Source of the DNA: Mycoplasmatota bacterium | GTDB taxonomy: Bacteria; Bacillota_I; Bacilli_A; MAG-NZ | Assembly (NCBI GenBank): GCA_018394315.1 | Contig: CP074575.1 | Coordinates: forward strand, 1,396,615-1,460,614 | Direction of reading: 5' to 3' | Length of the DNA: 64,000 nucleotides | Part shown: positions 23,789-64,000 of the stretch, one piece after another | How the letters are laid out: each line of letters begins with the position of its first letter | Position numbering within the stretch: the stretch's first letter is position 1 | Notes under the pieces: generated by a model | Told to the model about the DNA's origin: nothing | The model's database searches: none | Seen by the model: the letters and a program-made list of their open reading frames with translations, nothing else | Program-made: the position numbers and the translations under genes

Positions 23789-23881
23789 ATTCGAACTCTC
23801 TAAACACAGATTTAAGCTTATATATTATTAAGATTTCAAGCCATTATATCATGCAACATGGAAACTGGTTTTCACCTTAGA
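23789..23881 (+). repeat. att-like repeat, type A
   Basis: ATTCGAACTCTCTAAACACAGATTTAAGCTTA...CATTATATCA...TGGAAACTGGTTTTCACCTTAGA. Confidence 0.9.
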
Positions 23882-23944
23882 TAAGAAGTTGAAAATATTT
23901 TTCTACTTTTAAATTATGATTATGAGATTATTATAATTATAATA

Positions 23945-24262
23945 TTACAGTTTTAAAATACCTACTATCAGACCAATTATTACTACTAACGATAAACCGA
24001 TTATTTTTCTCCTCTTGTAATTTTTCAATATTTCATTTTGCAATATCATTATGAAAATATTAGATTGGAATATAAGGATATATATACGGTAGTTTCGATA
24101 GTTAATTAGTATATAAATTGTGTATATTAGTGATAAGATGAAAAGAATGTTAGTTACTATTCTTAATAATTTTGAAGCTGTGTGAATGTACCTATTAGCA
24201 AAATATAAAAACATTACAAACAAAGAAGACAATAAAAAAATCAGGTAAGTTTGTAACTCCAT
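23945..24262 (-). CDS. small membrane protein (single-gene cassette)
   Basis: GGAGAGAGG RBS, 4 hydrophobic segments, lies between two repeats. Confidence 0.65.
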   Translation of the reverse strand: MELQTYLIFLLSSLFVMFLYFANRYIHTASKLLRIVTNILFILSLIYTIYILINYRNYRIYILIFQSNIFIMILQNEILKNYKRRKIIGLSLVVIIGLIVGILKL

Positions 24263-24383
24263 TTCCTCTCCTCCTACTCTAAACAGTTTATAGGTTACTT
24301 AACGTTACAATATTATACCATAAAAGAGAGAGTTAAATATTTCACTTACAATGTTGCTGAACGGAGAAGTCATAAAGAAGCGA

Positions 24384-24480
24384 GGATTCGAACTCTCTAA
24401 ACACAAATTTAAGCTTATAATTTATTAAGTTATCAATGACATTGTAACATATGACATGGAAACTGGCTTTCCACCTTAGA
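24384..24480 (+). repeat. att-like repeat, type A
   Basis: GGATTCGAACTCTCTAAACAC...TGGAAACTGGCTTTCCACCTTAGA, then AAAAGTGAGA..TCTCACTTTT hairpin. Confidence 0.92.
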
Positions 24481-24595
24481 AAAAAGTGAGATTATTTCTC
24501 ACTTTTGACATTAACAAATTTTAGTATAAATAATACTTTTTGTTTGGATACCTTTAAATGTTCTGAGTAGGAGAAATACCGATAATATCATCGTC

Positions 24596-25759
24596 TTAAT
24601 CACTTATAACTATCAAATTAGGTAAACGTAAATATTCACAATGTATTATCAGCTCATTTTCGATAGCGTCAGTTAGTGTTATTACCTTATCATCAACTAA
24701 CAGTACATAATCAGAGAATGAACCTCCTATCATAGTGTAATTACCAAAAGTTTCTTCATAATCAAGATCATAACTATTAGAAGCATTATAATACATAGGA
24801 TTTTGATACATCCCGATATATACACCATTTCCATCAAAATAATTATTGATAATTTCCGGGACGAAGTGTTTTTCGTTCATGAATACTTTCTCAGCTGTAG
24901 TTTGACCGGGAAAAGTTTCTAGTAAAATATTGTAAGTTATATTAACTAAGTTACCTACTTTAAAGTCACTTGACACACCAGGTGCGTACTTAGTGTTACT
25001 ACCAATTCCTACAGAAGTAAGTCCTGGCTGGTATAAAGAGCTAACTAAAATATGGGATTCATCAGCTTCGACAATAGGTCCTATTATGTTATAGTTTTCA
25101 CCGATAACTGCTGGGTAATAAGCTCTTATAGCTGTAGCTTTCCAAGGATAACTAGACTTATCAAGATCCTTAATTACAAACTCGAGGTAATATCTCCAAC
25201 GTTCAGTTTTAGGGAAGTCATCAGGAATATATGTTTCGTCATTAATCTCAACCCATATATGGCCATAGTTGGATAATTTATCTGGAATAAGCAATTTATT
25301 ATCTTTTTCCTCTCTTGGTCTTCCGCCAACCATGTATTCAATAGGATACTCGCTAAAATCTCTTCTTTTACAAGCACCTTTTATTGAGCACAATTCTTCA
25401 ATAGATATCCCTAACTCATTAATGCTCGTTCTACCATTAACTTTGTAATCTGGACCAGATAACATATATGCATTACCATCTTTGAAAGCAAATACTCCTG
25501 TATAACAATTACTACCCCCACGTCCAGATATTTGTAACTCTCTATTCAAAACAACGGGCATAACGATATCCTCAGTACAAGCATCAGAAGAAATAGTATC
25601 TCTCTTCCATATCTCATAATTGCTCACTTCCCCGAGATATATAAGATCTTTCTTTGGAACTCTGTATTTATCACTTATGATTGATGCACTACGATTAAAG
25701 AAACAAGAAGAAACTATCATTATTGAAATTAAAATAATAATTGTTCTTAAAAACTTCAC
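24596..25759 (-). CDS. cassette lipoprotein paralog 1 (DUF3221/YobA-like OB domain possible)
   Basis: GTG start after AAGGGTGA; lipobox VSSC; paralogs at 48759, 50249, 62555. Confidence 0.8.
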   Translation of the reverse strand: MKFLRTIIILISIMIVSSCFFNRSASIISDKYRVPKKDLIYLGEVSNYEIWKRDTISSDACTEDIVMPVVLNRELQISGRGGSNCYTGVFAFKDGNAYMLSGPDYKVNGRTSINELGISIEELCSIKGACKRRDFSEYPIEYMVGGRPREEKDNKLLIPDKLSNYGHIWVEINDETYIPDDFPKTERWRYYLEFVIKDLDKSSYPWKATAIRAYYPAVIGENYNIIGPIVEADESHILVSSLYQPGLTSVGIGSNTKYAPGVSSDFKVGNLVNITYNILLETFPGQTTAEKVFMNEKHFVPEIINNYFDGNGVYIGMYQNPMYYNASNSYDLDYEETFGNYTMIGGSFSDYVLLVDDKVITLTDAIENELIIHCEYLRLPNLIVISD

Positions 25760-25860
25760 ATAAATCACCCTTTCTTCATAGTTGAACTCAAATAATATCA
25801 TATCAGACCCCCCAAAAAAAGAAAATAGGTTCGACAAAGTAATATTTTTGGATTATAGAA

Positions 25861-25957
25861 GGATTCGAACTCTCTAAACACAGATTTAAGCTTATATATT
25901 ATTAAGATTTCAAGCCATTATATCATGCAACATAGAAACTGGCTTTCCATGCTTGAG
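25861..25957 (+). repeat. att-like repeat, type A
   Basis: GGATTCGAACTCTCTAAACACAGATTTAAGCTTA...GAAACTGGCTTTCCA. Confidence 0.92.
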
Positions 25958-26095
25958 AAAAAAATCACCTCTACAGTTCTCTTTCTATAAAAATACAAAA
26001 TATTGATTATGTTAAAGTTAAAGTAATACTTGACTTTAACAATATTAAATGATATATTAACATTGTTAAACATAGAATATAGTAGGAGGTCTAAA

Positions 26096-26895: not shown

Positions 26896-27639
26896 CTAAA
26901 TCAAGCAATGTTCTCGGTATTGTACCGGGGACATTTTTAGTTTAGTTACTATCCTTTCATTATTATAATAATTAATGTATTTCTTAAGTTCTCTTATGAA
27001 CTGTTTGACTGTTTTGAACTTATTCACATGGTAAAATTCCGCCTTTAGATGAGAGAAAAAGTTTTCAGCCTTAGAATTGTCCAAACAGTTGCCTCTTCTA
27101 GACATGCTTTGTGTTATTTCCTTGTCTTCTAGATATGTTTGGAATCTTCTGTTTTGATACTGGAATCCCTGATCTGAGTGGACTATGGTATTTTTCATCT
27201 TAGTAGTAATTCCCTTTTCTAACATTTCAATAACTAGTCTTACATTGGGATTAAATCCTACTGTATAGCTTATTACTTCGTCGTTATGGATATCTATTAA
27301 CGGTGATAAGTATATCTTTCTACCATCTACCTTAAATTCAGTTATATCAGTTACTAATTTTTCTTTGAATATATTAGTGCTAAAATCCCGATTAAGTTCA
27401 TTGTTGGCTATCTTACCAACTTCCCCTTTGTATAATCTATATTTTTTCACTCGTATTTTAGCCACTAATCCTAATGATTTCATTAATCTATATACTTTCT
27501 TGTGATTAATTACTAAACCCTCATTTCTTAAAACTATGGTTATTCGCCTATAACCATATCTACCCTTATGTTTATAGTATATATTGGTTATTTTGCTTTT
27601 TATTTCTTTATCGTTATCAGAATCTATATTTTTGAGCAC
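26896..27639 (-). CDS. IS3 transposase OrfB (DDE); true 5' end likely reached by frameshift from OrfA
   Basis: YGYRRI, VTDITEF, HSDQGFQY, SRRGNCLDN..AENFFSHLKAE. Confidence 0.92.
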   Translation of the reverse strand: MLKNIDSDNDKEIKSKITNIYYKHKGRYGYRRITIVLRNEGLVINHKKVYRLMKSLGLVAKIRVKKYRLYKGEVGKIANNELNRDFSTNIFKEKLVTDITEFKVDGRKIYLSPLIDIHNDEVISYTVGFNPNVRLVIEMLEKGITTKMKNTIVHSDQGFQYQNRRFQTYLEDKEITQSMSRRGNCLDNSKAENFFSHLKAEFYHVNKFKTVKQFIRELKKYINYYNNERIVTKLKMSPVQYREHCLI

Positions 27640-27725
27640 ATCAAAATAAGTAGACTTAGCTAAGTTGGCTATCTCAAGAATAGGTTTTAGAACTCCGTGT
27701 TTTTGCCTTAGTTCAAATACTATTC

Positions 27726-28202
27726 TTACTTTTTCTTTCGTTTTCGCTCTTCCCGTTCTTGAACTAAGGCGTCTAGCTTTTTTAGATATTCTAGTTCCAA
27801 TCTTAACCTTTGGTTTTCTGCTAATAGGTCTTCATTTTTATTCAAATCCTTTGGTTTTTGTACAATCTTACTTTTTCTTCCTCTTCCATCTATGGATAGT
27901 CCATCAATGCCGTACTCATGGTATTTTCTTTCCCATTTATGTAGTGTTCCAGCAACAATACCATATTTCATGTCTGTTTCTGCGTATCCGTATTCCCAAA
28001 AATATTCAAGTATCTCAAACTTTTTTTCGCTAGATATTTTCGTGTTTTTCTTTCTCATAAATCCTGTAGTTTTACTCTTTCTAACCCACCTGTATATAGT
28101 TTCATCTGCCTTTAGGTTGAATTTATTCATTGTAGCAGTTAGACCATACTTATTATAGTAGCTAACTACTTTCACCTTAAATTCTACATCATATTTTGCC
28201 AA
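27726..28202 (-). CDS. IS3 transposase OrfA (HTH)
   Basis: MAKYDVEFKVKVV...ENQRLRLELEYLKKL. Confidence 0.9.
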   Translation of the reverse strand: MAKYDVEFKVKVVSYYNKYGLTATMNKFNLKADETIYRWVRKSKTTGFMRKKNTKISSEKKFEILEYFWEYGYAETDMKYGIVAGTLHKWERKYHEYGIDGLSIDGRGRKSKIVQKPKDLNKNEDLLAENQRLRLELEYLKKLDALVQEREERKRKKK

Positions 28203-28298: not shown

Positions 28299-28330
28299 GA
28301 TTCGAAATCTCTAAACACTGATTTAAACAC
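28299..28330 (+). repeat. truncated or divergent att-like repeat
   Basis: GATTCGAAATCTCTAAACACTGATTTAA, then divergence. Confidence 0.7.
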
Positions 28331-34891: not shown

Positions 34892-35791
34892 ATAAAGGGT
34901 AGAGCATTAGTGTATGTTACAAATGCAGATGATGACACTGTATCAGTAATCCAAACATCAGATAACCTAGTAATTGATACTATTACAGTAGGAAATACTC
35001 CACATGGATTAGCAGTAACACCAAATGGTAAGTTTGTCTATATTGCAAATGCAAATGATGATACTGTTTCAGTAATCCAAACATCTAACAATACAGTTGT
35101 TGATACTATATCAGTTGGAAGTGTTCCGAACAGAGTAGCAATAACACCGAATGGTAAGTTTGCGTATGTGGTAAACTTAAGTGGTGACAATGTTTCAGTA
35201 ATCAAAATAACAGATAGTGCAGTAGTTGATACTATAGCGGTTGGAGATTTTCCACATGGAATAGCGATAACACCAAATGGTAAATATGCATATGTTGCAA
35301 GTGTAAATGATAATTCTTTATCAGTAATCCGAACATCAGATAATTTAGTAGTAGATACTATAAGAGTTGGAACTCGGCCTATTGGAGTAGCAATAACACC
35401 AAATAGGAAATTTGTATATGTTACAAGTGAGATAGATGATAATGTATCAATAATCCAAATATCAGACAATACAGTAGTAGATACAATATCAGTTGGAAAC
35501 ACACCTTTTGGTATAGCAGTAACACCAAATGGAAAGTACGTGTATGTTACAAATCATAATGATGACACTGTATCAGTGATTCAGACATCCGACAACACAG
35601 TAGTAGATACTATAACAGTTGGAAATGGACCAATCGGAGTAGCATTAACACAAAATAGTCAGTTTGCATATGTTACAAATCATTTTGATGACAATGTATC
35701 AGTAATCAGAATATGTGATAATACAGTAGTTGATATTATTACAGTTGGACATCTTCCACGTGAATTAGCAGTAACACATAATCGAGCTTGA
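34892..35791 (+). CDS. YVTN/YncE 7-bladed beta-propeller protein (ATA at RBS-optimal position; GTG at 34910)
   Basis: Seven ~42-aa YVTN...VSVI...VGxxPxGxAxTPNGK repeats. Confidence 0.88.
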   Translation: MKGRALVYVTNADDDTVSVIQTSDNLVIDTITVGNTPHGLAVTPNGKFVYIANANDDTVSVIQTSNNTVVDTISVGSVPNRVAITPNGKFAYVVNLSGDNVSVIKITDSAVVDTIAVGDFPHGIAITPNGKYAYVASVNDNSLSVIRTSDNLVVDTIRVGTRPIGVAITPNRKFVYVTSEIDDNVSIIQISDNTVVDTISVGNTPFGIAVTPNGKYVYVTNHNDDTVSVIQTSDNTVVDTITVGNGPIGVALTQNSQFAYVTNHFDDNVSVIRICDNTVVDIITVGHLPRELAVTHNRA

Positions 35792-35970
35792 TTTAAGAAA
35801 ATTTAATCAATTTCTTCTTCGGGTTTGCAATATTAGACATATATAAATATTACTATTAGAAAGTTAGAATTAGCTTGAAACTCGGATAATGAGATAGAAT
35901 CAATTGGGACTAGGGATGAATATTTATTTGAGAAGAGGATTCAAAACCTCTTTTTTTTGCCTTAAATGCG

Positions 35971-38705: not shown

Positions 38706-38728
38706 TGACATTCCAGGAGAGATTCGAA
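38706..38728 (-). repeat. degenerate tRNA 3'-end fragment (att scar, arm absent)
   Basis: TGACATTCCAGGAGAGATTCGAA versus TGGCACCCCAGGAGAGATTCGAA at 62330. Confidence 0.65.
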
Positions 38729-38997
38729 TTTATTATTTTCTGTTTTTTTTTCTGAAATGTTTATGATTTTTATATATGTTATAATAAAAAAAAGCTCATT
38801 ATCGTATGAGCAAAATTTGAACGCCATATGAAATCAACTAGAATTGTAGTGAATGACTACAAATATCACCAAAATTTAGATAATTCGATAAATGATATGA
38901 CTGTTATAAATTTGAAAAATCGATGCTGGTAAAACATCAACTCTCTAGCTGTTATAAGTCTCATGTAATAGCCCAAAACATATTTAGGAGGTAAAGA

Positions 38998-39696: not shown

Positions 39697-39699
39697 AAT

Positions 39700-42715: not shown

Positions 42716-42750
42716 GGATTCGAACTCTTCATACATAGGTTTAAACACTA
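42716..42750 (+). repeat. att-like repeat, divergent arm type B
   Basis: GGATTCGAACTCTTCATACATAGGTTTAAACACT; same arm as 58479. Confidence 0.75.
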
Positions 42751-43261: not shown

Positions 43262-43370
43262 CGGCTGAGGAAGTGGGATTCGAACTCTCTAAAAACTGAT
43301 TTTTAGCTTATACGCTATTAAGTTTTTAAAAAAATTATCATTTGACATGGAAACTCGCATTCCACCCTTA
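43262..43370 (+). repeat. att-like repeat, type A, with left flank resembling a different tRNA 3' end
   Basis: CGGCTGAGGAAGTGGGATTCGAACTCTCTAAA...TGGAAACTCGCATTCCA. Confidence 0.85.
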
Positions 43371-43502
43371 AAAAAATAAAAGGTATTCTATTTGATATTT
43401 ATAACTTTTGGATGCAACTTACCGACGTTTAGTTGTTTTATTAATCATTTAATCTATACTATAAATAGAACAGTTCCCAAAATTATGCAACGAGGTGAAA
43501 AT

Positions 43503-45148: not shown

Positions 45149-45244
45149 TACTTTTTGCAGCAAGCAGGAACTATTATTATAATTAAATAAATTCGTTATT
45201 CCAGTAAAGTTATAAAATTAATCGAAGATTTGAAACGACAGGAA

Positions 45245-45339
45245 GACTCAAAATCGTTAAATACGGATTTAGGCTTATATATTATTAAGTTTTCGAAGGC
45301 ATTATATAATATGACATAGAAACGTTTTTCCATCCTAGA
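45245..45339 (+). repeat. att-like repeat, type A, with degenerate core
   Basis: GACTCAAAATC...GATTTAGGCTTATATATTATTAAGTTTTCG...GACATAGAAACGTTTTTCCATCCTAGA. Confidence 0.8.
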
Positions 45340-45493
45340 TAAAAAAAACAATGATTTATCCCTGGAAAAGCGAAAAATATATCTTGTTGTCTTGATATTA
45401 GTATGTGATCTACAAATTTTTCTGCTATGATTTATTTTAATTCAAATATGATAAACAAAGGTAAGTAAAATATGCTTACCTTTGTTTAATAAA

Positions 45494-46553: not shown

Positions 46554-46730
46554 ACATGGTCATACGTATATATAATTGTTATAAAAAAGATAAAACTCTT
46601 GAATAAGTTTCTTAAAACAGAATATATCTAAGCTTAATAAGTTTACGGGAAGAAGAACAAATTGATTGTAACAATTATCAACCTTATAACTACGTAAATT
46701 CCTTCGTTCTATTTTTCTACTTTTTTATGT

Positions 46731-46908
46731 ATCTCATTTCATAAATGGAGATATACATTTGCAACCATGTCTCTTTGGAGTAGCAAGGATTTAAAATTCG
46801 TACGCAAGACACTTGACATACTACAAACAAACAATAACCTACTTACATCTAAACAATGATGATATGAGACAAGCTCACACTATAACACGTCCGGTCTTAA
46901 GCATATAA
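46731..46908 (+). pseudogene. tyrosine recombinase/integrase C-terminal remnant (frameshifted)
   Basis: Manual translation: ISFHKWRYTFATMSL...DLKFVRKTL; shifted frames give (G)HTT and TITYLHLNNDDMRQAH...stop, matching HxxR, LGH and catalytic Tyr. Confidence 0.8.
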
Positions 46909-46979
46909 TAAACTAAAAAGGAGAGATAATAGTCTCTCTTTGGGTAGTGCAAAATAATCGGACCACTATCACTTTTTAA

Positions 46980-47089
46980 TGGCACCCAGGAGAGATTCGA
47001 ACTCTCTAAACACTGATTTAAGCTTATATATTATTAAGTTTTCAAAAGCATTATAACATACGACATGGAAACTGGCTTTCCACCTTAGA
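46980..47089 (+). repeat. tRNA 3'-end plus type A att-like repeat
   Basis: TGGCACCCAGGAGAGATTCGAACTCTCTAAACACTG...TGGAAACTGGCTTTCCACCTTAGA. Confidence 0.93.
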
Positions 47090-47282
47090 AAAAAACGAAA
47101 AATATTTTTCGTTTTCTAATGTAATGATAATAGATAAAGATTCTCTACCCTACAGATATAACCAGAAGGTTAGTGTTTTTCTGATATTAGTTGTCGTATG
47201 TACTGTAATTTGGTAGTTACAAAAGTATATGATAAAATTGAAATAAGTTAGGAAATGATTATCAAAATAAAGGGGGAATAAG

Positions 47283-48488
47283 ATGAATAAAATATTAACC
47301 ATGTTTTTTCTATTAGTGTTAAGTAGTACTTTAATAGCGTGTGAGAAGGAAACAGTTCCATTGAATGAGGGTGTAAAAAACCCATTAGTAACTGAAGGGA
47401 ATTCTGAGTTTGCTTTTGATATCTTCAGGGAGTTAAATAATGAAGATTATAATGAGAATATTTTTATATCTCCTTTTAGTATTTCGAGTGCACTAGCAAT
47501 GACTTTGAATGGAGCAGCAGGAGATACTAAAGATTCAATGCAAACTACACTGCAACTAAAAGACATAAATATTGAGGATATGAATAATGGGTTTGCACAT
47601 ATAAATTACATGTTAACAAATCTTGATGAAGATGTTGAAATTAATATCGCAAATTCTCTTTGGGTGAAAGATGAATACATGTTGAACAAACAATTTGAAT
47701 TTGATATTAAAAGTAATTTTAATGCGAATGCTACTTTGCTAGATTTTGAAGATGATAAGTCGGTAGATGTAATTAATGAATGGGTAAGTGACAAGACTAA
47801 TGATTTAATAGATGAAATGATTAAAGGAATAGATCCATATGCTGCATTAATCTTAATAAATGCGATATATTTTAATGGTTCTTGGCAAGATGAATTTAAT
47901 CCTAGCAAGACCCAATCAAAAGATTTTATTACATTAGATGGAAGTATCATGCAAGTTGATATGATGAGAAGAATAGATGAAATTGATTATTATGAAGACA
48001 ATGAAATCATAGCTGTAAAACTACCATATGGCGATGGATTAATTAGTATGTACTGTGTTTTGCCTAATGGAAATGAAGACATAAATTCTGTAATTTCGGA
48101 GATGAACGTAGATAAGTGGAATGATTTAAGAAATGAAATGAACTACTTTTATGAAGTTACTCTTGAGTTACCAAAATTTAAAATGGAATATGGAATTAAA
48201 GGATTAAACGATGCTTTGGTAAATCTAGGTATGGACGTAGCATTTGATGAAAGAGCATATTTTCCTGATTTAATAGAGGGAATGGAAGATAATCTATATA
48301 TAAATGCAGTAAACCATAAAGCGGTAGTTGACGTTAGTGAAGAGGGGACAGAAGCGGCCGCAGTTACATCTGTAGAAGTAGAAGTAGAAAAAAAAGCGAG
48401 TCGAACCTTTATAGCAAATAGACCGTTTATGTTTATAATAGGTGATGAAGAAGGAAATATATTATTTATAGGAAAGAAGGTAGCATAG
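47283..48488 (+). CDS. serpin lipoprotein, copy 1
   Basis: Lipobox LIAC; NIFISPFSI, INAIYFNGSW, EEGTEAAA hinge, FIANRPF. Confidence 0.93.
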   Translation: MNKILTMFFLLVLSSTLIACEKETVPLNEGVKNPLVTEGNSEFAFDIFRELNNEDYNENIFISPFSISSALAMTLNGAAGDTKDSMQTTLQLKDINIEDMNNGFAHINYMLTNLDEDVEINIANSLWVKDEYMLNKQFEFDIKSNFNANATLLDFEDDKSVDVINEWVSDKTNDLIDEMIKGIDPYAALILINAIYFNGSWQDEFNPSKTQSKDFITLDGSIMQVDMMRRIDEIDYYEDNEIIAVKLPYGDGLISMYCVLPNGNEDINSVISEMNVDKWNDLRNEMNYFYEVTLELPKFKMEYGIKGLNDALVNLGMDVAFDERAYFPDLIEGMEDNLYINAVNHKAVVDVSEEGTEAAAVTSVEVEVEKKASRTFIANRPFMFIIGDEEGNILFIGKKVA

Positions 48489-48548: not shown

Positions 48549-48644
48549 GATTCGAATTCTCTAAACACTAATTTAAGCTCATAAACTATTAAGTTTTCGA
48601 AGACATTATAACATATGACATGGAAACTGACTTTCCACCTTAGA
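48549..48644 (+). repeat. att-like repeat, type A
   Basis: GATTCGAATTCTCTAAACAC...TGGAAACTGACTTTCCACCTTAGA. Confidence 0.92.
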
Positions 48645-48758
48645 AAAAAAGTGAGATTATTTCTCACTTTTGACATTAACTGATTTTAGTTCAAATAATA
48701 CCTTTTATTGGTACCCTTAAACGTTCTGAGTAGGAGAAATACCGATAATACCATCGTT

Positions 48759-50035: not shown

Positions 50036-50132
50036 GGATTCGAACTCTCTAAACACTGATTTAAGCTTATAAAATATTAAGATTTCAAAGACATTATAAC
50101 ATATGACATGGAAACTGACTTTCCACCTTAGA
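50036..50132 (+). repeat. att-like repeat, type A
   Basis: GGATTCGAACTCTCTAAACACTG...TGGAAACTGACTTTCCACCTTAGA. Confidence 0.93.
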
Positions 50133-50248
50133 AAAAAAAGTGAGATTATTTCTCACTTTTGACGTTATTTATTTTTAGTACAAATAATGCTTTTGTTTAG
50201 GTACTAATAAGTGTTCTGAGTAGGAGGAATACCGATAATATCATACTT

Positions 50249-51412: not shown

Positions 51413-51512
51413 ACAAATCATCCTTTCTCCATGCTTGTACTCTAATAGTATCACATCAAAGCCTAAAAAAAGAAAAATTGGTTCGACAAAGTAATATTTT
51501 TGGATTAGAGAA

Positions 51513-51608
51513 GGATTCGAACTCTCTAAACACTGATTTAAGCTTATATATTATAAAGTTTTCAAGCCATTATATCATACGACATGGAAACTGGCTTTCC
51601 ACCCTAGA
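51513..51608 (+). repeat. att-like repeat, type A
   Basis: GGATTCGAACTCTCTAAACACTG...TGGAAACTGGCTTTCCACCCTAGA. Confidence 0.93.
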
Positions 51609-51770
51609 AAAAAGTGAGATTATTTTTATTAGATTTTGAGGTAAATGAAATAATAATCATATAATTATTCCATATTTATTATGATGATTCCAAAAATGAA
51701 AATATAATCAATGTACAATAAAACAAGTACCGCAAAAAAAAAGAGACTAAAAAGTCTCTATATATTCCTA

Positions 51771-52403: not shown

Positions 52404-52693
52404 AACAGATGAACCCTTTCGAACAAAAGAATTAGTATCCTTACATAAAGATAACTTAGTAGTTATATTTCCCTCCTCAATTAACACTATTATTTCACCC
52501 TTTCACATTACTTCATATTCTATTAATAGTATACACCATACTACTATTTTATACCACTCTAGAAATTTACAATAGATTATAAGGTTATATCACTCCCCAT
52601 TACCTGACGGATTAATGATGAGAAAGTCAGCAAAGAAACAGAATTACAACACTTATTTGTGACAATAATACTCAATCTACGAATGACATATTT

Positions 52694-54615: not shown

Positions 54616-55203
54616 ATAAAAAAATTTAAAGTGGCCTCGATAATCATTGCACTTTCAATGGCTTGTGGAGGTTTTATTTGGTACAGTAGCAGTTTTAATC
54701 AGACAATCATCATAGACCCTTCTTACACAATAGACCTTGCGGATGACAAGGTTATGGTAGGATTTTATGAGAATGTTTTTACAGGTTTAGTTCTGGAGGA
54801 ATTGGGAAATGATCCAGATGCACATATACCTGTCACAGATTACCGAGTCCAAGTAATTGACAATATAAAAGGAGAAGTATCTGGCGAGGTTACTCTGAAA
54901 AACAGAGGGGGATACGATGATAGAAATAACTTATTCTTATTTGAGGGAGATTTTCTACCAGAAGTGGGGAGTATTTATTTATTCACTACAGGGGTAATTA
55001 AAAATAACACGGACTATAAGAACGATTTGTATGTAGTATCTAGTAGTTATCAAAAAGTACTATTGTTGAAGACAATTAATAACTATGAATTCGACACGCC
55101 GTAAAAAGTACTATTGTTGAAGACAATTAATAACTATGAATTCGACACGCCGTTGGTTTCAAGATTTATTGATGCATATGCAAATGAAGTAAAGGAAAAG
55201 TAG
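54616..55203 (+). pseudogene. secreted protein disrupted by a 51-bp tandem duplication and an ATA start
   Basis: GGGAGG followed by ATA in frame; duplication junction creates TAA at 55102-55104; frame continues LVSRFIDAYANEVKEK to TAG at 55203. Confidence 0.7.
55052..55153 (+). repeat. perfect 51-bp tandem duplication
   Basis: AAAAAGTACTATTGTTGAAGACAATTAATAACTATGAATTCGACACGCCGT x2. Confidence 0.95.
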
Positions 55204-55291: not shown

Positions 55292-55388
55292 GGATTCGAA
55301 CTCTCTAAACACTGATTTAAGCTTATATATTATTAAGTTTTCAAAAGCATTATAACATACGACATGGAAACTGGCTTTCCACCCTAGA
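55292..55388 (+). repeat. att-like repeat, type A
   Basis: GGATTCGAACTCTCTAAACACTG...TGGAAACTGGCTTTCCACCCTAGA. Confidence 0.93.
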
Positions 55389-55581
55389 AAAAAACGAAAA
55401 ATATTTTTCGTTTTCTAATGTAATGATAATAGAGAAAGATTCTCTACCCTACAGATATAACCAGAAGGTTAGTGTTTTTTTGATATTAGTTGTCGTATGT
55501 ACTGTAATTTGGTAGTTACAAAAGTATATGATAAAATTGAAATAAGTTAGGAAATGATTATCAAAATAAAGGGTGAATAAG

Positions 55582-56793
55582 ATGAATAAAATATTAACCA
55601 TGTTTTTTCTATTAGTGTTAAGTAGTACTTTAATAGCGTGTGAGAAGGAAACAGTTCCATTGAATGAGGGTGTAAAAAACCCATTAGTAACTGAAGGGAA
55701 TTCTGAGTTTGCTTTTGATATCTTCAGGGAGTTAAATAATGAAGATTATAATGAGAATATTTTTATATCTCCTTTTAGTATTTCGAGTGCACTAGCAATG
55801 ACTTTGAATGGAGCAGCAGGAGATACTAAAGATTCAATGCAAACTACATTGCAACTAAAAGACATAAGTATTGATGATATGAATAATGGGTTTGCATATA
55901 TAAATTACATGTTAACAAATCTTGATGATGATGTTGAAATTAATATCGCAAATTCTCTTTGGGTTAAAGACGAATACACATTGAACAAACAATTTGAATT
56001 TGATGTTAAAAGTAATTTCAATGCGTATGCTACTTTGCTGGATTTTGAGGATGATAAGTCGGTAGATGTAATTAATGAATGGGTAAGTGACAAGACTAAT
56101 GATTTAATAGATGAAATAATTAAAGGAATAGATCCATATGCTGCATTAATCTTAATAAATGCGATATATTTTAATGGTTCTTGGCAAGATGAATTTAATC
56201 CTAGCAAGACTCAATCAAGAGATTTTACTACAATAGACAATAATGTTATACAAGTTGATATGATGAACAGAACCGATGAAATCGGTTTTTATGAGGATAA
56301 TGAAATCACAGCTGTAAAACTACCATATGGTGATGGATCAATTAGTATGTATTGTGTTTTGCCTAATGGAAATGAAGACATAAATTATATAATTTCCGGG
56401 ATGAACGTAGATAAGTGGAATGATTTAAGAAATGATATGAACTACTATTATGAAGTTACTCTTGAATTGCCAAAATTTAAGATGGAATATGGAATCAAGG
56501 CATTAAATGATGCATTAATTAAACTAGGAATGGATATTGCGTTTGATAACAGAGCATATTTTCCTGATTTAATAGAGGGAATGGAAGATAATCTATATAT
56601 AAATGTAGTAAGCCATAAAGCGGTAGTTGACGTTAGTGAAGAGGGGACTGAGGCGGCTGCGGTTACATCTATTACAGTGCCAGGTTCATCTGCTTTAGTA
56701 GAAAGACACACCTTTATTGCAAACAGACCGTTTATGTTTATAATAGGTGATGAAGAAGGAAATATCTTATTCATAGGAAAAAAAGTAACATAA
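55582..56793 (+). CDS. serpin lipoprotein, copy 2
   Basis: N-terminus identical to copy 1; different reactive centre loop. Confidence 0.93.
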   Translation: MNKILTMFFLLVLSSTLIACEKETVPLNEGVKNPLVTEGNSEFAFDIFRELNNEDYNENIFISPFSISSALAMTLNGAAGDTKDSMQTTLQLKDISIDDMNNGFAYINYMLTNLDDDVEINIANSLWVKDEYTLNKQFEFDVKSNFNAYATLLDFEDDKSVDVINEWVSDKTNDLIDEIIKGIDPYAALILINAIYFNGSWQDEFNPSKTQSRDFTTIDNNVIQVDMMNRTDEIGFYEDNEITAVKLPYGDGSISMYCVLPNGNEDINYIISGMNVDKWNDLRNDMNYYYEVTLELPKFKMEYGIKALNDALIKLGMDIAFDNRAYFPDLIEGMEDNLYINVVSHKAVVDVSEEGTEAAAVTSITVPGSSALVERHTFIANRPFMFIIGDEEGNILFIGKKVT

Positions 56794-56845
56794 TTAATAA
56801 AGGGTGTTTTTATGATAGTAGAAGTTAAAATGGAACAGGTATTTT

Positions 56846-56940
56846 GATTCGAACTCTCTAAACACTGATTTTAGCTTATATATTATTAAGATTTCAAGCC
56901 ATTATATCATAAGACATTGAAACTGGCTTTCCACCCTAGA
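56846..56940 (+). repeat. att-like repeat, type A
   Basis: GATTCGAACTCTCTAAACACTG...TGAAACTGGCTTTCCACCCTAGA. Confidence 0.92.
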
Positions 56941-57084
56941 AAAAAAGTGAAAATATTTTTCGGTAAGCATAATCGCTTACTTTTTACTTTTAGAGGTGAA
57001 TTTATTACTAATAATTGGAAATAATAAAAGTTATGAACTATAGATTTATAATTATACAATATTGATTCAAGCAGGGTATATAAA

Positions 57085-58394: not shown

Positions 58395-58478
58395 ATATCT
58401 TATTCATAGGAAAAAAAGTAACATAATTAATAAAGGGTGTTATTATGATAGTAGAAGTTAAAATGGAACAGGTATTTT
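58395..58478 (+). pseudogene. remnant 3' end of a further serpin cassette
   Basis: Near-identical to 56762-56845 (ILFIGKKVT* plus downstream flank up to the core). Confidence 0.85.
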
Positions 58479-58570
58479 GATTCGAACTCGTCATACATAG
58501 GTTTTAACACTTTCTTTAGTTAATAAATTAATGATAATTATAATACATTATATATACTTTATGTCACTCT
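58479..58570 (+). repeat. att-like repeat, divergent arm type B
   Basis: GATTCGAACTCGTCATACATAGGTTTTAACACT...CATTATA...TATGTCACTC. Confidence 0.75.
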
Positions 58571-58663
58571 AATAATTTTTTTAAAAAAATTCATACAATA
58601 AATAACTTTTTGTGTGTAAATAATAATGTCAGAAGTAAGAGTTTTATAGAAAAGAAGAAGATA

Positions 58664-58770
58664 GGATATGAACTCCCAATATAAGAAATTTATACTCTCG
58701 TTTAATATTCGATTTTGATTAATTCAAGTGCACTATATCTAATCAAAGAGACACCTATATGTCACTCTTA
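58664..58770 (+). repeat. att-like repeat, divergent arm type C
   Basis: GGATATGAACTC...ATTCGATTTT...CACTATATC...GAGACACCTATATGTCACTC. Confidence 0.55.
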
Positions 58771-58837
58771 AAAAATAAACCATATATTTATGATTTACTG
58801 TCATTCTTAAATTTTACTAAATATACAATCCCAACTA

Positions 58838-59023
58838 CTAATGCGGTAATATTAATAACGGTAATAAGATACCAACTTGACCTAGTGAATATCTGAACTT
58901 ATTTCCACTCCATCTAGTCAATCCTTGAAAAATAATTGCTGTGCTTATATACCATGAACTAAACAGTAATGAAGAAATCCCACAAAATGCTACTCCAATT
59001 CCTCTTTTACTAATAACAGACAC
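58838..59023 (-). CDS. small membrane protein, possibly truncated
   Basis: AGGAGG adjacent to the start; hydrophobic; lies between two type C sites. Confidence 0.4.
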   Translation of the reverse strand: MSVISKRGIGVAFCGISSLLFSSWYISTAIIFQGLTRWSGNKFRYSLGQVGILLPLLILPH

Positions 59024-59085
59024 CTCCTATTTTGAACTAATTATTTTGAGTGTGTTTCTATGTTTATAAAGTAGTAAAGTTAACG

Positions 59086-59190
59086 GGAGTCGAACTGCCC
59101 AAGTGACAAAAACCTACATCATTTTTTCTATTCAATTTTACTAATACAAACTCATTATATCATTTCAGGGAGACACACGTATGTCACTCA
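59086..59190 (+). repeat. att-like repeat, divergent arm type C
   Basis: GGAGTCGAACT...ATTCAATTTT...CATTATATCA...GAGACACACGTATGTCACTC. Confidence 0.6.
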
Positions 59191-59703
59191 AAAGAAATAA
59201 ATCAAGTTTATTTCTTTTTACTTATACCTGAAACTTAACTGGACTCAACAGCAAACACAATACCATCATTAAAATAAGAAATATAAATTTGATTGGTCTT
59301 TCTTTTCTAAATACGAGTCTACAAAGTAAATTCCTAGATGAATAAATAATACCACCGAGATAATAATTGTTGAGTCCAAATTGTTTGACTCAATCTCGTC
59401 TCGCAGATCAAAACATCATTCAGAAACCAGAATCAGTTAACAGTACTTTTTTTAAAAAAGCAAAACAATAAAAGAACTAATGTTTCTTAATATGGTTAAT
59501 CCTGTTAGTCCACCCTTGTATTTTTTTAACATTTATAGACTACCTTATTACGATTATGACAACTGTCAGAATATAAACAACTATATGGTTCTCGACTCCT
59601 GTCATGTATACTTATCAACTTATTTTCAATTTCTAATTAATGCAAGTTATTATAATATAATGGGGTAGACACACCATGAACTGTCTATGGTTAAAAAAAT
59701 ATA

Positions 59704-60330
59704 TTACTTCATTGCGGAATAAAGAAGACCGAATACATATGATGATAAATCATCTATTGTCATATTTGAATGCTTAGAATAATTATCACCAGTAATAGTA
59801 AGTTGATTTAGAAATCCTGTTAGCAGAAATATTAATGAACTAGTAGTTAACCTTACATCCAATTCTTTGGAGATACTACCATCTTGCTGACCTTCTATTA
59901 CTAAGTTCAACAAATCTTCAAAAATTAATTTATCAATTTTCAAAAATTCCATTATTTTTGGATTTTCTGTTTTTTGTCTTACATTTCCTATATCATATAT
60001 AATCCTAAAGTTTGATTCATTTTTTTTATAAAATCTATAATATGCAAAAAAATTTGCTTTTATTTTTTCTAATCCACTATCATACTCGGAGTTTAAATTA
60101 CTGAAATAGCGATACATATTATTATACAATCTTAATGCAACTGTTAAATATAAGTCATTTTTGTCTTCAAAATATTGATACAATGTTCTCTTGGAAAATT
60201 CTGCCTCTTTCGCAATTTCGTTCATTGAAGCATGTTCAAAACCATCTCTTGCAAAAATTTTTTCAGCAGAATTGATTATTTCTGTTTCGCGTTGTAAACG
60301 CTCTCGTTCTTTTCTTGATAAATTATTCAT
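59704..60330 (-). CDS. TetR/AcrR-family regulator
   Basis: AEKIFARDGFEHASMNEIAKEAEFSKRTLYQYFEDKNDL. Confidence 0.93.
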   Translation of the reverse strand: MNNLSRKERERLQRETEIINSAEKIFARDGFEHASMNEIAKEAEFSKRTLYQYFEDKNDLYLTVALRLYNNMYRYFSNLNSEYDSGLEKIKANFFAYYRFYKKNESNFRIIYDIGNVRQKTENPKIMEFLKIDKLIFEDLLNLVIEGQQDGSISKELDVRLTTSSLIFLLTGFLNQLTITGDNYSKHSNMTIDDLSSYVFGLLYSAMK

Positions 60331-60522
60331 ATGTAAATAAATCCTTTCTATAAAATATTACTTGACAAAAAGTATACGACATTGTACACTGTATATGAAT
60401 CAAGTACACCAGCGGTAAACTAAGTATACAAATAAAACAAGTAATCTATTGTGAGTGTAGTAAGTAACATGAAAGTATACTTAATTATACTACAAGTTGA
60501 TTCGGAGGTAAAGGAGAAAATT

Positions 60523-61815
60523 ATGAAAAGAATTATTAAATTTTTTAAAAGGTTCACTAATCCAAAAATTTTTAGGATTTCAATGCTACTGTTTTTTTTA
60601 GCAATATTTATTATGGATAACCACTGGTTTGGTCAGCAACATTTATCTCAAGTTACTGAAGGCGTTGGAATGATTGATATGAATATAATAAATTCAGTAA
60701 ATGGCATTCATAATCAACTTGGAAATATGGGTAATGAGGGACGGTTAGTATATACAACTCTGTTACAACTTGACTTCCTTATTATTATTACCCTTGGTTT
60801 CTTTCAAATTATTTCTTTGTTAAAAATGGTTGGAAAGAATGGATTATCTAGTCAATGGGAGTACTTAATTTTCTTGCCTATATCAAGGGGTTTGTTTGAT
60901 GGTATTGAAAATGTTTTATTATACATTGCTACGATTATATACCCATCTAAAAACGTATTGCTACTAAAAGTGACAGGACTATTTATCTTTACTAAGTGGA
61001 TTGCTTTTTGGTTAACAATAGTTGTACTTTTGTGTCTAGTTGTAGTAAGCATATATAATTTAATTAAGAAAAGGAGAGAAGAGATTATGAGGACTGATAT
61101 TAAAATTATTGGAGTAACAGCTAGTGCTAGAAAAGAAGGTTTGGGTAGAGAGTTAGTTGACTATGCACTAAATGGCGCAGTGTTATTTGGAGCTGAGGTC
61201 GAAATTATAGACTTATATGAGGCAAAGTTAGAATTTTGTACTGGATGTATGGATTGTTTGGAATTAGGCAAGTGTGGACAAAATGATAAATTCGAGATGA
61301 TAAAGGATAAGTTATATAAAGCGGATGGAATAGTTATATGCGCTCCTACTTATTGCGGTACATATAGTGCAGTTATGAAGAATTTTATTGATAGATTAGG
61401 TCTCTATGAACATCTAACATCATCACTAGGAGAAAAGTACATATTAAGCATTTCTACTGGAGGTGGTCAAAGTATGGCAAAACAAACAGCAATACAAATG
61501 TCTAAGGCACTTGCTGGAGGTCCATTTGCAAGAGGTTACATTTCTGGAGTAATGGGAGGAAGCTACAGACCTGGAGACGAGGTAATCGCTAAGCGTGTAG
61601 ATATTAGACAAAGAAGTTTAAATAAAGCTGAAAAATTAGGCCAACAATTAGTTGAAGATATTAGCAACAATAAAAAGTATTTATTTCAAAATATCTTTAG
61701 TAGGCTATTATCCAAACTCGTTCTTCGTCCAGTGTATATTAAATTTATTATGAAAAACAAAAAAAAGAATACAAAGGCGGTTTATAATAACCTTGTGTCT
61801 AGAAATATATTATAA
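60523..61815 (+). CDS. 4-TM membrane domain fused to an iron-sulfur flavoprotein/NADPH-dependent FMN reductase domain
   Basis: AAGGAG RBS at MKRIIK; C-half has ASARKEG, CTGCMDCLELGKC, APTY, MKNFIDR. Confidence 0.8.
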   Translation: MKRIIKFFKRFTNPKIFRISMLLFFLAIFIMDNHWFGQQHLSQVTEGVGMIDMNIINSVNGIHNQLGNMGNEGRLVYTTLLQLDFLIIITLGFFQIISLLKMVGKNGLSSQWEYLIFLPISRGLFDGIENVLLYIATIIYPSKNVLLLKVTGLFIFTKWIAFWLTIVVLLCLVVVSIYNLIKKRREEIMRTDIKIIGVTASARKEGLGRELVDYALNGAVLFGAEVEIIDLYEAKLEFCTGCMDCLELGKCGQNDKFEMIKDKLYKADGIVICAPTYCGTYSAVMKNFIDRLGLYEHLTSSLGEKYILSISTGGGQSMAKQTAIQMSKALAGGPFARGYISGVMGGSYRPGDEVIAKRVDIRQRSLNKAEKLGQQLVEDISNNKKYLFQNIFSRLLSKLVLRPVYIKFIMKNKKKNTKAVYNNLVSRNIL

Positions 61816-62329
61816 AAATTTTTGCGGTTACAATAATGGTCAAATCAATGAATCTAGACTACAAAAGATTATGAAATTCATACTTTTCATAGTCTTTTTT
61901 GTGTACATCTAACAAATGAATTCAAAAATTTCTTTAGACCGCTTCTTTTTAATACCCAGTAGAATAACCAAGATATAATGTGAAATATTACAATTTATAT
62001 TAATAAATAGGTAACTGCTGCAATTACACTTTTCCCTGTGTCAACTCTTTAAGTTTCATCTAATCATCTCGTTAAACAAATTAACTTAGAAAGAATTTTG
62101 TCGAGTTGGTGTTATTTACAATCCTATGAGAAAGTTTAAAAAACTTAACAAGGATGATGTTGAAATAGTTACAATAAGTCCTAAAGTCCTAAAATCTATT
62201 CTTTATTATTTAAGGTATGCAGAACAAACTCTTAAAGTACTAAAAAAAATAGGTAGTCGATTAAAGAGTGAATCATGGTTTTTCGCAACACATGATTTCA
62301 ACTTTTATCACTTACCTATGCTATTTTAA

Positions 62330-62439
62330 TGGCACCCCAGGAGAGATTCGAACTCTCTAAACACTAATTTAAGCTTATATATTATTAAGTTTTCAAGTAA
62401 TTATATCATACGACATGGAAACTGACTTTCCACCTTAGA
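62330..62439 (+). repeat. complete tRNA 3'-end (Arg-like) plus type A att-like repeat
   Basis: Minus strand GAGAG-TTCGAAT-CTCTC-CTGGGGT-G-CCA = T arm, acceptor 3' strand, discriminator, CCA; no anticodon or D arm. Confidence 0.93.
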
Positions 62440-62554
62440 AAAAAAGGTGAGATTATTTCTCACTTTTGACATTAACTGATTTTAGTACAAATAATACCTT
62501 TTATTGGTACCCTTAAACGTTCTGAGTAGGATAAATACCGATAATACCGTCGTT

Positions 62555-63730
62555 TCAATCACTTATAACTATCAAATTAGGTAAATGTAAATATTCACAA
62601 TGTATTATCAGTTCATTTTCGATAGCATCAGTTAGCGTTATTACCTTATCATCAACTAACAGTACATAATCAGAGAATGAACCTCCTATCATAGTGTAAT
62701 TACCAAAAGTTTCTTCATAATCAAGATCATAACTATTGGAAGCATTATAATACATAGGATTTTGATACATCCCGATATATACACCATTTCCATCAAAGTA
62801 ATTACTTATAATTTCTGGGACAAAGTGTTTTTCGTTCATAAACACTTTCTCTGCTGTAGTCTGACCAGGACCAGTTTCTAGGTAAATACCGAAAGTTATA
62901 TTAACGAGGTTACCAACTTTAAAATCGTTTGATACCCCATCGGCATACTCAGTTTTCTCACTAATAGAAACATATGTTAATCCCGGCTGGAATAAAGATT
63001 GTACTAAAATATCGTGCTCATCAAAATCAACAATTGGTCCAATTATGTTGTTGTTTACACCAACAATTGGTGGATAATATGCTTTTACTGCGGTGGCTGT
63101 CCAAGGATAACTGGATTTATCAAGATCTTTTACTTCAAATTCTAGATGATATCTCCATTGTTCTATCTCAGGGAATTCATCAGAGGTCTCTGTGTCTTCT
63201 AATATTTCAACCCATATATGACCAAAGTTTGATAGTTTATCGGGAATAAGTAATTTATTTCCTATTTTATCTCTAGGCCACCCACCAATCATATTTGCAT
63301 CGGATAACATTTTAGCCTCTTTGGTATAATCTCTTTTTTCACACGCTCCTTTTATGGAACATAATTCCTCTATAGATATCCCTAATTCTTTAATACTCGT
63401 TCTACCATTAATCTTATAATCTGGACCAGATAACATATATGCATTACCATCTTTGAAAGCAAATACTCCTGTATAACAATTACTCCCCCCCTGTCCAGAT
63501 ATTTTCCATTCGTTATTTAATAATACAGGCCATACAATATCTTCAGTACAATTTTCAGAAGAGATAGTGTCCCTTTTCCATATTTCATAATTGTTGATTT
63601 CACCTATATAGATAAGATCTTTCATTGGTATTTTGAATCTATCACTTATGATTGATGCACTAGGATTATTATTACATGAAGAAACTAATACTATTGTTGT
63701 CAAAATAATGAATACTTTAATATACTTCAC
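62555..63730 (-). CDS. cassette lipoprotein paralog 4 (near-identical to paralog 2)
   Basis: GTG start after AAGGGTGA; lipobox VSSC. Confidence 0.8.
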   Translation of the reverse strand: MKYIKVFIILTTIVLVSSCNNNPSASIISDRFKIPMKDLIYIGEINNYEIWKRDTISSENCTEDIVWPVLLNNEWKISGQGGSNCYTGVFAFKDGNAYMLSGPDYKINGRTSIKELGISIEELCSIKGACEKRDYTKEAKMLSDANMIGGWPRDKIGNKLLIPDKLSNFGHIWVEILEDTETSDEFPEIEQWRYHLEFEVKDLDKSSYPWTATAVKAYYPPIVGVNNNIIGPIVDFDEHDILVQSLFQPGLTYVSISEKTEYADGVSNDFKVGNLVNITFGIYLETGPGQTTAEKVFMNEKHFVPEIISNYFDGNGVYIGMYQNPMYYNASNSYDLDYEETFGNYTMIGGSFSDYVLLVDDKVITLTDAIENELIIHCEYLHLPNLIVISD

Positions 63731-63829
63731 AAAAATCACCCTTTCTCCACACTTGTACTCTAATAATATCATATCAGGCCCAAAAAAAAGAAAAATAGGT
63801 TCGATAGAGTAATATTTTGGATTAGAGAA

Positions 63830-63926
63830 GGATTCGAACTCTCTAAACACTGATTTAAGCTTATATATTATTAAGTTTTCAAAAGCATTATAACATACGA
63901 CATGGAAACTGGCTTTCCACCTTAGA
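63830..63926 (+). repeat. att-like repeat, type A, followed by a serpin-cassette leader
   Basis: Arm as at 46994/55292; 63927-64000 matches the leaders upstream of both serpins. Confidence 0.93.
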
Positions 63927-64000
63927 AAAAAACGAAAAATATTTTTCGTTTTTTAATGTAATGATAATAGAGAAAGATTCTCTACCCTACAGATATAACC

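Follow-up and report, generated by a model that had tools for sequence, protein, structure and literature searches.

The stretch of DNA considered here (the window) comprises 64,000 nucleotides of a Mycoplasmatota bacterium (contig CP074575.1, positions 1,396,615 to 1,460,614), and it carries the left part of a 59-kb array of short repeats that runs from the chromosome flank (window 23788) to a tRNA-Arg(TCT) gene lying 19.2 kb past the window end. It is close to certain that these repeats are halves of attachment (att) sites, produced by site-specific recombination at the T-loop of this tRNA gene. That the array as a whole consists of such half-sites, of integrase-bearing islands and of cassettes resembling cis-mobilizable elements (CIMEs), which recombined at its internal junctions, we regard as probable.

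In this reading each repeat is made up of a crossover core, GAGTTCGAATC in the tRNA sense, and a conserved arm on one side of it, together forming half an attachment site, and the site is that of a group of small integrative elements related to one another, with a tyrosine recombinase encoded beside the tRNA gene. At least four integrase-bearing elements have arrived, and the other modules, about 20 in number (0.56–3.8 kb), would be integrase-less, CIME-like cassettes. The latter would not have entered at the tRNA gene itself, since their left flanks cannot rebuild the tRNA; they were more likely inserted, copied and reordered by core recombination between junctions of the array. The mobility of single cassettes is what we infer from the anatomy of these junctions.

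A co-oriented repeat anchored on the tRNA-Arg(TCT) gene

A repeat search, followed by alignment of 15 copies (13 full and two partial), gave a repeat of about 105 nt with 13 full copies in the window, all on the plus strand. The nhmmer profile built from these 13 copies recovered every one of them (E = 6e-22 to 5e-32; starts in Table 1) where an earlier, sequence-only reading of this DNA had placed them. When the same profile was run over the whole genome, which is one closed contig of 2.17 Mb (C1), as that reading had proposed, it found 21 full and three partial copies, all on the plus strand and all within C1:1420401-1473625, so that the array extends 13.6 kb beyond the right window end. Elsewhere in the genome no profile match was better than E = 5e-5, and in the first 23.7 kb of the window, described earlier as free of the repeat, the single match has E = 6.4. 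The 11-nt core, allowing at most one mismatch, occurs 44 times on the plus strand of the genome, 26 of them inside the 60-kb locus, and 22 times on the minus strand, none of them inside the locus. In these respects, including the single orientation, the sequence-only reading has stood. Its count of about eight partial or divergent copies was too high: four can be supported in the window (28299-28327, 42717-42742, 58479-58504 and 38713-38731, the last being a relic made of a tRNA tail plus core), and the remaining core-like matches of the region come to about the chance number given by the opposite strand (six).

Similarity between the copies starts sharply at GATTCGAAC. To the right of this edge the arms are on average about 86% identical to each other, and the flanks across the core are unrelated and differ by cassette, as had been noticed before, with a lipoprotein type and a serpin type each seen four times. 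The earlier statement that all copies are intergenic holds for long open reading frames (ORFs) with family support; a few mechanically called ORFs overlap the repeats.

ARAGORN found no tRNA inside the window. In the region that continues past its right end (L001), an intact tRNA-Arg(TCT) gene is located on the minus strand at C1:1479789-1479865 (L001:19175-19251), 6 kb past the last repeat copy, and it is the only one in the ARAGORN tRNA list of the genome. Its T-loop, GAGTTCGAATC in the tRNA sense, coincides exactly with the repeat edge, which had been read from the window as the reverse complement of a tRNA T-loop; the 11-nt core common to the tRNA and the repeat covers this loop and the G53-C61 pair. 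At three junctions (window 46994, 62345 and 73767, the last beyond the window end) the identity continues for 20–30 nt, through the tRNA 3′ end into the downstream flank, the longest match reaching 53 nt at 92%. ARAGORN calls the tRNA gene complete and its 3′ part abuts the resident element, meaning that the island restores the gene.

The resident element is intact, 6.3 kb long, and carries an integrase, an XRE-type regulator and a DNA methyltransferase. Its integrase is a 318-aa tyrosine recombinase (L001:18129-19082, plus strand) encoded 92 bases from the tRNA 3′ end, and with it both the tRNA and the recombinase that had been predicted to lie beyond 64 kb are accounted for. The protein has matches in Pfam (PF00589, 8e-32) and PHROGs (phrog_1, 4e-54), and the catalytic R, HxxR and H..Y residues were identified by eye; its best NCBIfam matches are Xer-like, all under the cut-off, and it gave no match to an arm-binding domain family. 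An island at tRNA-Ser(TGA) in the same genome shares 3.4 kb with the resident element at 91% identity; the integrase of that island is 55% identical, and further integrase paralogues are found at the tmRNA gene and at tRNA-Trp.

Modules, cargo and decayed islands

Cutting at the cores gives 25 junctions which, with the tRNA gene, delimit modules c1–c26, each lying between two core-bearing junctions that share their core with the tRNA beside the integrase. By left-flank type the junctions divide into three tRNA, four lipoprotein, four serpin and 14 singletons, and the 22 without a tRNA tail have only the 11-nt core in common with the tRNA. Most modules span 0.56–3.8 kb and mostly contain one or two genes, the exceptions being c4, a 14-kb stretch, and c3, which bears an insertion sequence (IS). 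The cargo includes four lipoprotein genes, three serpins, a LytTR regulator, a radical-SAM enzyme, a Spore_permease-family transporter, GIY-YIG and DUF3800 proteins and many small unknown proteins; gene orientation is minus in 11 modules, plus in 10 and mixed in four. Pfam gave no recombinase among the scanned cassette ORFs (c1, c2, c5–c13, c15–c25), tblastn detected only C-terminal integrase remnants, in c7, c14 and c23, and no conjugation or mobilization genes were seen in Pfam and PHROGs scans of the array and resident element proteins. The modules thus have the marks of CIMEs, being flanked by att sites, with no integration or transfer genes found in the scanned cassettes.

The three modules with a remnant (E = 3e-4 for c7, 0.25 and hence weak for c14, and 2e-7 for c23) are also the three that end in a tRNA-type flank. 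Modules c7 (45245-46993), c14 (58479-62344) and c23 (beyond the window) are recognizable from this anatomy as decayed integrase-bearing islands of 1.7–3.9 kb. A tRNA tail of 20–30 nt as the mark of an island end is thus seen at three of the 25 junctions, in addition to the one relic. The arms of these islands are all atypical, one being divergent, one of a second, short type and one truncated. The absence of the canonical arm from the three decayed modules argues against the cassettes simply descending from them. Blocks of cassettes sit on the distal side of each integrase-bearing element, which would fit either capture at the distal junction of the element or arrival of the element together with its cassettes.

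Probable recombination at the core, and accretion with decay as an alternative

Since a non-tRNA flank after the core would destroy the only tRNA-Arg(TCT), 22 of the 25 junctions must, as far as their sequences can be read, have formed elsewhere than at the tRNA gene, most simply at junctions already existing in the array. All nine pairs of duplicated cassettes align from the first base of the core, and eight of them to the last base before the next core; in the exceptional pair, c8–c12, the last 50 nt differ. The duplicates are 78–96% identical and have different neighbours. The arms of the three serpin cassettes are 99–100% identical (permutation 0.0008), whereas arms grouped by their left neighbour reach 0.87–0.88 against an average of 0.855, that is, not above average; the arm therefore appears to travel with the module on its right, with the break at the core. 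Nine of 22 junctions (5 of about 15 distinct flank types) have the motif GAGA, the mirror of the arm-side TCTC, no more than 14 nt to the left of the core, against a background of 4%, and this suggests a second core-type half-site on that side.

The stacking of non-autonomous cassettes by site-specific recombination, as proposed by the sequence-only reading, is in keeping with these core-to-core duplicates confined to one locus, but it does not hold for at least three modules, which are the decayed integrase-bearing islands described above. One may go further and regard every module as the remnant of an integrase island that entered at the tRNA, with tails and integrases lost by deletion or drift, and with duplicates arising from unequal homologous crossing-over between the 105-nt repeats, so that no module moves by itself. 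We consider this account unlikely. The three demonstrable remnants speak for it, as do the ordinary tandem arrays at tRNA-Ser, tRNA-His, tRNA-Gln and tmRNA in the same genome, but the three remnants bear the atypical arms rather than the canonical one, and in the tRNA-Ser(TGA) array four of the five fragments retain 27–28 nt of tRNA tail. At the tRNA-Arg locus, by contrast, 22 of the 25 junctions, with 16 non-tRNA flank types, lose similarity exactly at the core, and deletions would not all stop at one base. The high average identity of the arms next to unrelated flanks across the core is also hard to reconcile with decay, and so is the greater conservation of core plus arm than of the mostly coding remainder in eight of the nine duplicate pairs.

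Several observations weigh against recombination at internal junctions as a full account, and some of them favour accretion with decay. Arm and body identities are mosaic in some pairs (c9–c15, arm 90% and body 96%; c9–c10, arm 94% and body 76%), so gene conversion or homologous exchange between arms also occurs, and such exchange could explain some of the conservation of the arms with no function involved. Compared with random arm sets, the lipoprotein arms show no significant clustering (p = 0.10). By eye, the serpin-type left flank still resembles the tRNA tail in part, and some non-tRNA flanks may thus be drifted tRNA tails. The distal arm of the resident element has no core. Folding 42 nt of DNA around the core, with 200 left-flank shuffles as the control, placed none of the 22 junctions in the lowest 5% for a hairpin across the core (mean z −0.18). 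Two scans of metagenome contigs with conserved parts of the repeat gave no matches, and the one metagenome joint described below comes from a single contig with a depth of 3.45, 85% likeness and a side of 47 nt; such joints may stem from other organisms or repeats. A consensus promoter scan found 62 sites against 61.5 expected in shuffles, which is uninformative in AT-rich DNA, and the evidence for a promoter in the arm is motif conservation.

The arm as a putative regulatory unit

Read in the tRNA sense, the parts of the arm are a cassette-specific bidirectional terminator, a T-run, a GGAAA-N5-TTTCC palindrome, TGNTATAAT, TTGAAA, an AT-rich stretch with two TTAAG-containing boxes 17 nt apart, and the core. 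The palindrome is found in 12 of 21 arms with the strict pattern, and TGNTATAAT, which faces the core, in 16 of 21 against a background of 0.012 per arm-sized window. An inverted copy of the palindrome-plus-TATAAT unit stands immediately before the integrase gene, in the spacer between the XRE-type regulator and the integrase (L001:18060-18110). The layout of the tRNA-Arg arm is found again in the arms of the tRNA-Ser and tRNA-Gln islands, whose integrases are paralogous (55% identity), and in the tRNA-Ser family the palindrome carries a compensatory change, GGAAG/CTTCC. The lipoprotein genes start some 60 nt past the core, and the interval holds no more than a ribosome-binding site, so they would be read from the arm of the neighbour. 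The arm probably has a regulatory role as well, with reading into the module that follows.

These features raise the question whether the repeat is mainly a regulatory unit (terminator, operator, promoter) spread by tandem duplication of gene families, its likeness to the tRNA being incidental and the integrase uninvolved. The terminator adjoining the arm, the palindromic box and TGNTATAAT, and the recurrence of both motifs upstream of the integrase would suit such a view. We nevertheless find it very improbable, because the repeat keeps a fixed orientation among unrelated genes on both strands, its edge is the T-loop of the tRNA beside the integrase, three copies continue 20–30 nt into the tRNA tail and downstream flank, and arms of the same layout accompany paralogous integrases at other tRNAs. 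That the repeat is a miniature inverted-repeat transposable element (MITE) or another transposon end, or that the duplicates are an assembly artefact, is hardly credible at all: the repeat is indeed short, non-coding, AT-rich and present in many copies, yet it is confined to one locus and one strand rather than dispersed in both orientations, none of the 22 minus-strand cores lies in the locus, inverted ends and target duplications were not seen, the duplicates differ by 4–24% and have different neighbours, and the genome is one closed contig; neither the scatter nor the artefact that the sequence-only reading had named as dangers to itself is therefore found.

Relatives and other arrays

Of eight genomes of the family, two have the repeat: the present one and a metagenome-assembled genome (MAG), 55% complete, of the same genus (G001). 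The latter has three full and two partial copies (about 80–85% identity) at contig ends, flanking other cargo, namely SDR plus aminotransferase, LemA plus M48 peptidase, a GDSL lipase and IS elements. A search of genome contigs with the repeat returned only one contig, from the same-genus MAG. In G001, G003 and G007 the tRNA-Arg(TCT) gene adjoins the same oxidoreductase gene, and no integrase homologue was found beside it with the 318-aa integrase as query; in G001 the T-arm of this tRNA differs, and tRNA-Leu comes next. In all three genomes the 1.2 kb that follow tRNA-Arg downstream gave no tblastx match to window 1-24000.

One sequencing run (a cold seep metagenome, share 0.09) yielded short contigs of a relative that cover 14 of 30 bins of the stretch without spanning it. 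Among them is a 174-nt contig in which window 58215 runs straight into core plus arm; the present genome has no such junction. Position 58215 lies in the tail of the transporter module c13, and in the metagenome relative this tail meets a core there instead.

Displaced 3′ fragments, one to five per gene, accompany at least seven small-RNA genes of this genome, with modules down to 0.85–1.25 kb (Table 1). Serpin and lipoprotein paralogues (60–65% identity) are found in the islands marked by tRNA-His fragments. Two tRNA-His 3′-end fragments at C1:1815778-1819764, 1.5 Mb from the tRNA-His gene, flank a lipoprotein-paralogue fragment (1816452-1817135, 60% identity), perhaps an island piece that was moved or inverted. 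In G007, which belongs to another genus of the family, two arrays adjoin integrase homologues within C1:1550001-1590000 (L017+L018): one has five copies of tmRNA 3′-end fragments (about 1552050-1558665), and the other has eight copies, 0.3–1.7 kb apart, of a 17-nt palindrome resembling the anticodon arm of tRNA-Phe(GAA) (about 1552420-1576200). No tRNA gene was found in the 40 kb inspected there.

Other features of the locus

The coordinates of the junctions, cargo genes and remnants are collected in Table 1. The right end of c13 (58395-58506) repeats the last ~84 nt of the serpin cassette plus core (56762-56873) at 93% identity, so that c13 has a serpin-type flank. Modules c11 and c20, otherwise unrelated, have in common an ORF of 238 aa of unknown family, 92% identical over 832 nt and placed at different offsets. 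Tandem repeats were seen inside a beta-propeller (Lactonase/YNCE-like) gene (six 126-nt units, window 34906-35835), inside the 116-aa ORF of c5 (eight 27-nt units, 42899-43186) and at 5183-5399 (15-nt units), and a perfect 51-nt duplication lies at the end of the 157-aa ORF (55052-55153). Rfam gave no match to the repeat in the window, its sole match being a 6S RNA (RF00013, 7024-7190, plus strand, 51 bits against a gathering score of 46.4).

Table 1. Positions of array features, of genes next to the integrase and of displaced small-RNA fragments (window positions unless L001 or C1 is given)
Feature	Position	Strand	Basis or remark
att repeat (core + arm), leftmost junction; core with one mismatch, TATTCGAACTC	23787..23889	+	nhmmer E = 4.7e-26
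att repeat, starts lipoprotein cassette c2 (24385-25861)	24383..24490	+	nhmmer E = 1.5e-29
att repeat with lipoprotein-type left flank	25860..25963	+	nhmmer, flank comparison
IS with rve-type transposase, two ORFs, in c3	26896-28202	-	~100 nt from truncated att repeat; separate insertion
Truncated att repeat, core + 18 nt (cut after 29 nt)	28299..28327	+	profile search
Relic: 8 nt of tRNA-Arg tail + core, no arm	38713..38731	+	16-nt exact match to tRNA-Arg 3′ part
Core + second, short arm type (also at 58479)	42717..42742	+	two matches against none expected by chance
att repeat; cassette c6 with LytTR regulator and 438-aa ORF	43275..43378	+	nhmmer, Pfam
Divergent att repeat, left end of decayed island c7	45244..45346	+	nhmmer E = 5.9e-22
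Integrase C-terminal remnant (aa 256-285, 57% identity), right end of c7	46725..46814	+	tblastn
tRNA-Arg tail (tRNA-type left flank) + core + arm, starts serpin cassette c8	46974..47098	+	tRNA comparison, nhmmer (full copy from 46993)
Serpin gene of c8	47283..48488	+	PF00079, E = 1e-106
att repeat with serpin-type left flank, starts lipoprotein cassette c9	48549..48654	+	nhmmer, flanks
att repeat with lipoprotein-type left flank, starts lipoprotein cassette c10	50036..50143	+	nhmmer, flanks
att repeat, starts c11 (238-aa ORF, radical SAM, 157-aa ORF)	51512..51619	+	nhmmer, Pfam
238-aa ORF region shared by c11 and c20	51716-52547; L001 ~4687-5513		
att repeat, starts serpin cassette c12	55292..55397	+	nhmmer, Pfam
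att repeat with serpin-type left flank, starts c13 (Spore_permease-family transporter)	56846..56950	+	nhmmer, Pfam
Core + second, short arm type, left end of decayed island c14 (TetR, FMN reductase)	58479..58504	+	flanks, Pfam
Weak integrase remnant (aa 104-155, 50% identity), right end of c14	62096..62245	+	tblastn, E = 0.25 (weak)
tRNA-Arg tail + 20 nt of downstream flank (92% over 53 nt) + core + arm, starts lipoprotein cassette c15	62303..62450	+	tRNA comparison, nhmmer (full copy from 62344)
Lipoprotein gene of c15	62558..63796	-	signal peptide with Cys lipobox by eye; no Pfam or NCBIfam match
Lipoprotein paralogues of the c15 gene	24599-25837, 48762-50012, 50252-51472		
att repeat with lipoprotein-type left flank, starts serpin cassette c16 (runs past window end)	63830..63935	+	nhmmer
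HTH protein; below-cut-off DUF4238 protein; several small ORFs; N6/N4 DNA methyltransferase; 70-aa XRE-type regulator	between last (partial) arm and integrase		
70-aa XRE-type regulator gene	L001:17833-18045	+	ends 84 nt before integrase gene
tRNA-Ser(TGA)	C1 657728-657820		fragments at 673916, 680658, 683024, 684272, 685479
tRNA-His	C1 c269950		fragments at 253447, 256611, 266518
tRNA-Ser	C1 c394039		three fragments
tRNA-Gln	C1 c641284		two fragments
tRNA-Trp	C1 c7950		one fragment
tmRNA			one fragment

Relation to known systems and significance

An integron has an IntI-type integrase, attC sites that fold as imperfect palindromes with little sequence conservation, and co-oriented cassettes behind a common promoter. 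As a working analogy, the present locus likewise has one recombinase gene at the end of a row of small modules that runs in one direction; most modules hold a single gene, each has its own site, and some are duplicated. To this extent the comparison drawn by the sequence-only reading is sound. The locus is not an integron, however, for its integrase is not IntI (62.3 bits against a cut-off of 265 for the integron-integrase model TIGR02249, with only aa 235-304 aligned), its sites are alike in sequence and not in fold, its genes point both ways, and it is anchored at a tRNA gene. The lack of attC, remarked on earlier, is borne out by the sequence similarity of the sites and by the fold test: stems enclosing the core are weak and seen at about 10 junctions, and attC-like folding as a general feature is ruled out, with no junction of 22 above the shuffles. 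The pdif/Xer modules, with 28-bp XerC/XerD sites in alternating orientation, are likewise ruled out, as had been anticipated, since all 24 copies have one orientation and the site is an 11-nt core with a one-sided arm of 95 nt.

The sequence-only reading did not recognize a named system here. The locus in fact belongs with island accretion at tRNA genes (tDNAs) and with CIMEs, as an unusually dense, cassette-like variant (PMC5704250, PMC3146451, bioRxiv 10.1101/2020.12.28.424599). The Islander work describes tandem insertion at tDNAs, with a tyrosine integrase beside the intact tDNA, restoration of the gene, displaced fragments that mark older ends, and newcomers that push older islands outward (PMC4383910), all of which is similar to what we see. 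The differences are that the tRNA sequence extends past the 11-nt core at only three of 25 junctions and in one relic, that modules here are mostly 0.6–1.7 kb without an integrase, and that a one-sided 105-nt arm is conserved at the junctions.

In streptococci, decayed or integrase-less CIMEs flanked by att sites accrete with incoming elements, their integration genes being lost or absent and their att sites kept, as in this array (PMC5704250). According to the same source, CIMEs are decayed integrative and conjugative or integrative and mobilizable elements, usually one or two per site, whereas about 20 cassettes are found here, several of them duplicated and without visible conjugation or mobilization genes, and their canonical arm is missing from the decayed integrase elements of the array. 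The ssrA islands of Dehalococcoides are similar in that many of them lie in tandem within 100 kb of one small-RNA gene, with insertion at the T-loop and direct repeats of its 3′ end, and 15 islands without an integration module have been proposed to be CIMEs (PMC3146451). Those islands depend on a serine recombinase (CcrB-like) and a 20-bp repeat, and that paper reports no duplicates within any one strain; at the present locus the enzyme is a tyrosine recombinase, the site is core plus arm, and lipoprotein and serpin cassettes are duplicated.

The tycheposons of Prochlorococcus insert at seven tRNA genes, including tRNA-Arg(TCT), leave partial tRNAs and fragmented integrases behind, and form back-to-back, cargo-carrying elements separated by partial tRNAs, much as here (bioRxiv 10.1101/2020.12.28.424599). 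They are defined in that preprint by shared integration and replication (primase/helicase/polymerase) modules, whereas no replication gene was found in the resident element with Pfam and PHROGs; the cassette density of the array is also far higher, and most of its junctions have no partial tRNA beyond the core. A limited literature search for an integron-like, tRNA-based cassette array found no description of exactly this layout, which is not proof of absence.

Tandem tRNA islands are usually read as graveyards of decayed elements. Here 25 junctions fall within 59 kb, most modules are single-gene units, most junctions could not have arisen at the tRNA gene, the arms are more conserved than coding sequence and the duplications run from core to core. 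These features suggest a cassette system that is still at work, operated by an ordinary integrase that targets a tRNA gene. A bolder proposal, possible but rather doubtful in our judgement, is that of a true functional analogue of the integron with an independent origin, in which the Xer-like integrase at tRNA-Arg, with a distal site of its own that has lost the core, would capture, excise and reshuffle a dedicated class of integrase-less cassettes recombining at the T-loop core plus the ~95-nt one-sided arm, the arm would end each cassette with a terminator and an outward, operator-controlled promoter for the next one, and the platform would amplify and vary surface lipoproteins and secreted serpins; its sister platforms at other tRNAs in the family would, on the same tentative footing, represent one widespread, unnamed kind of gene capture.

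Taken together, the locus offers a compact test bed, with one integrase, one tRNA and several natural junction types. If the system works as the junctions indicate, integron-type gene capture would extend beyond IntI and attC, and the islands linked to tRNA genes in many phyla may call for a second reading. For the bacterium itself, the four lipoprotein and three serpin copies, with paralogues in islands of other tRNA types, suggest that it varies its cell-surface and anti-protease repertoire through the array.

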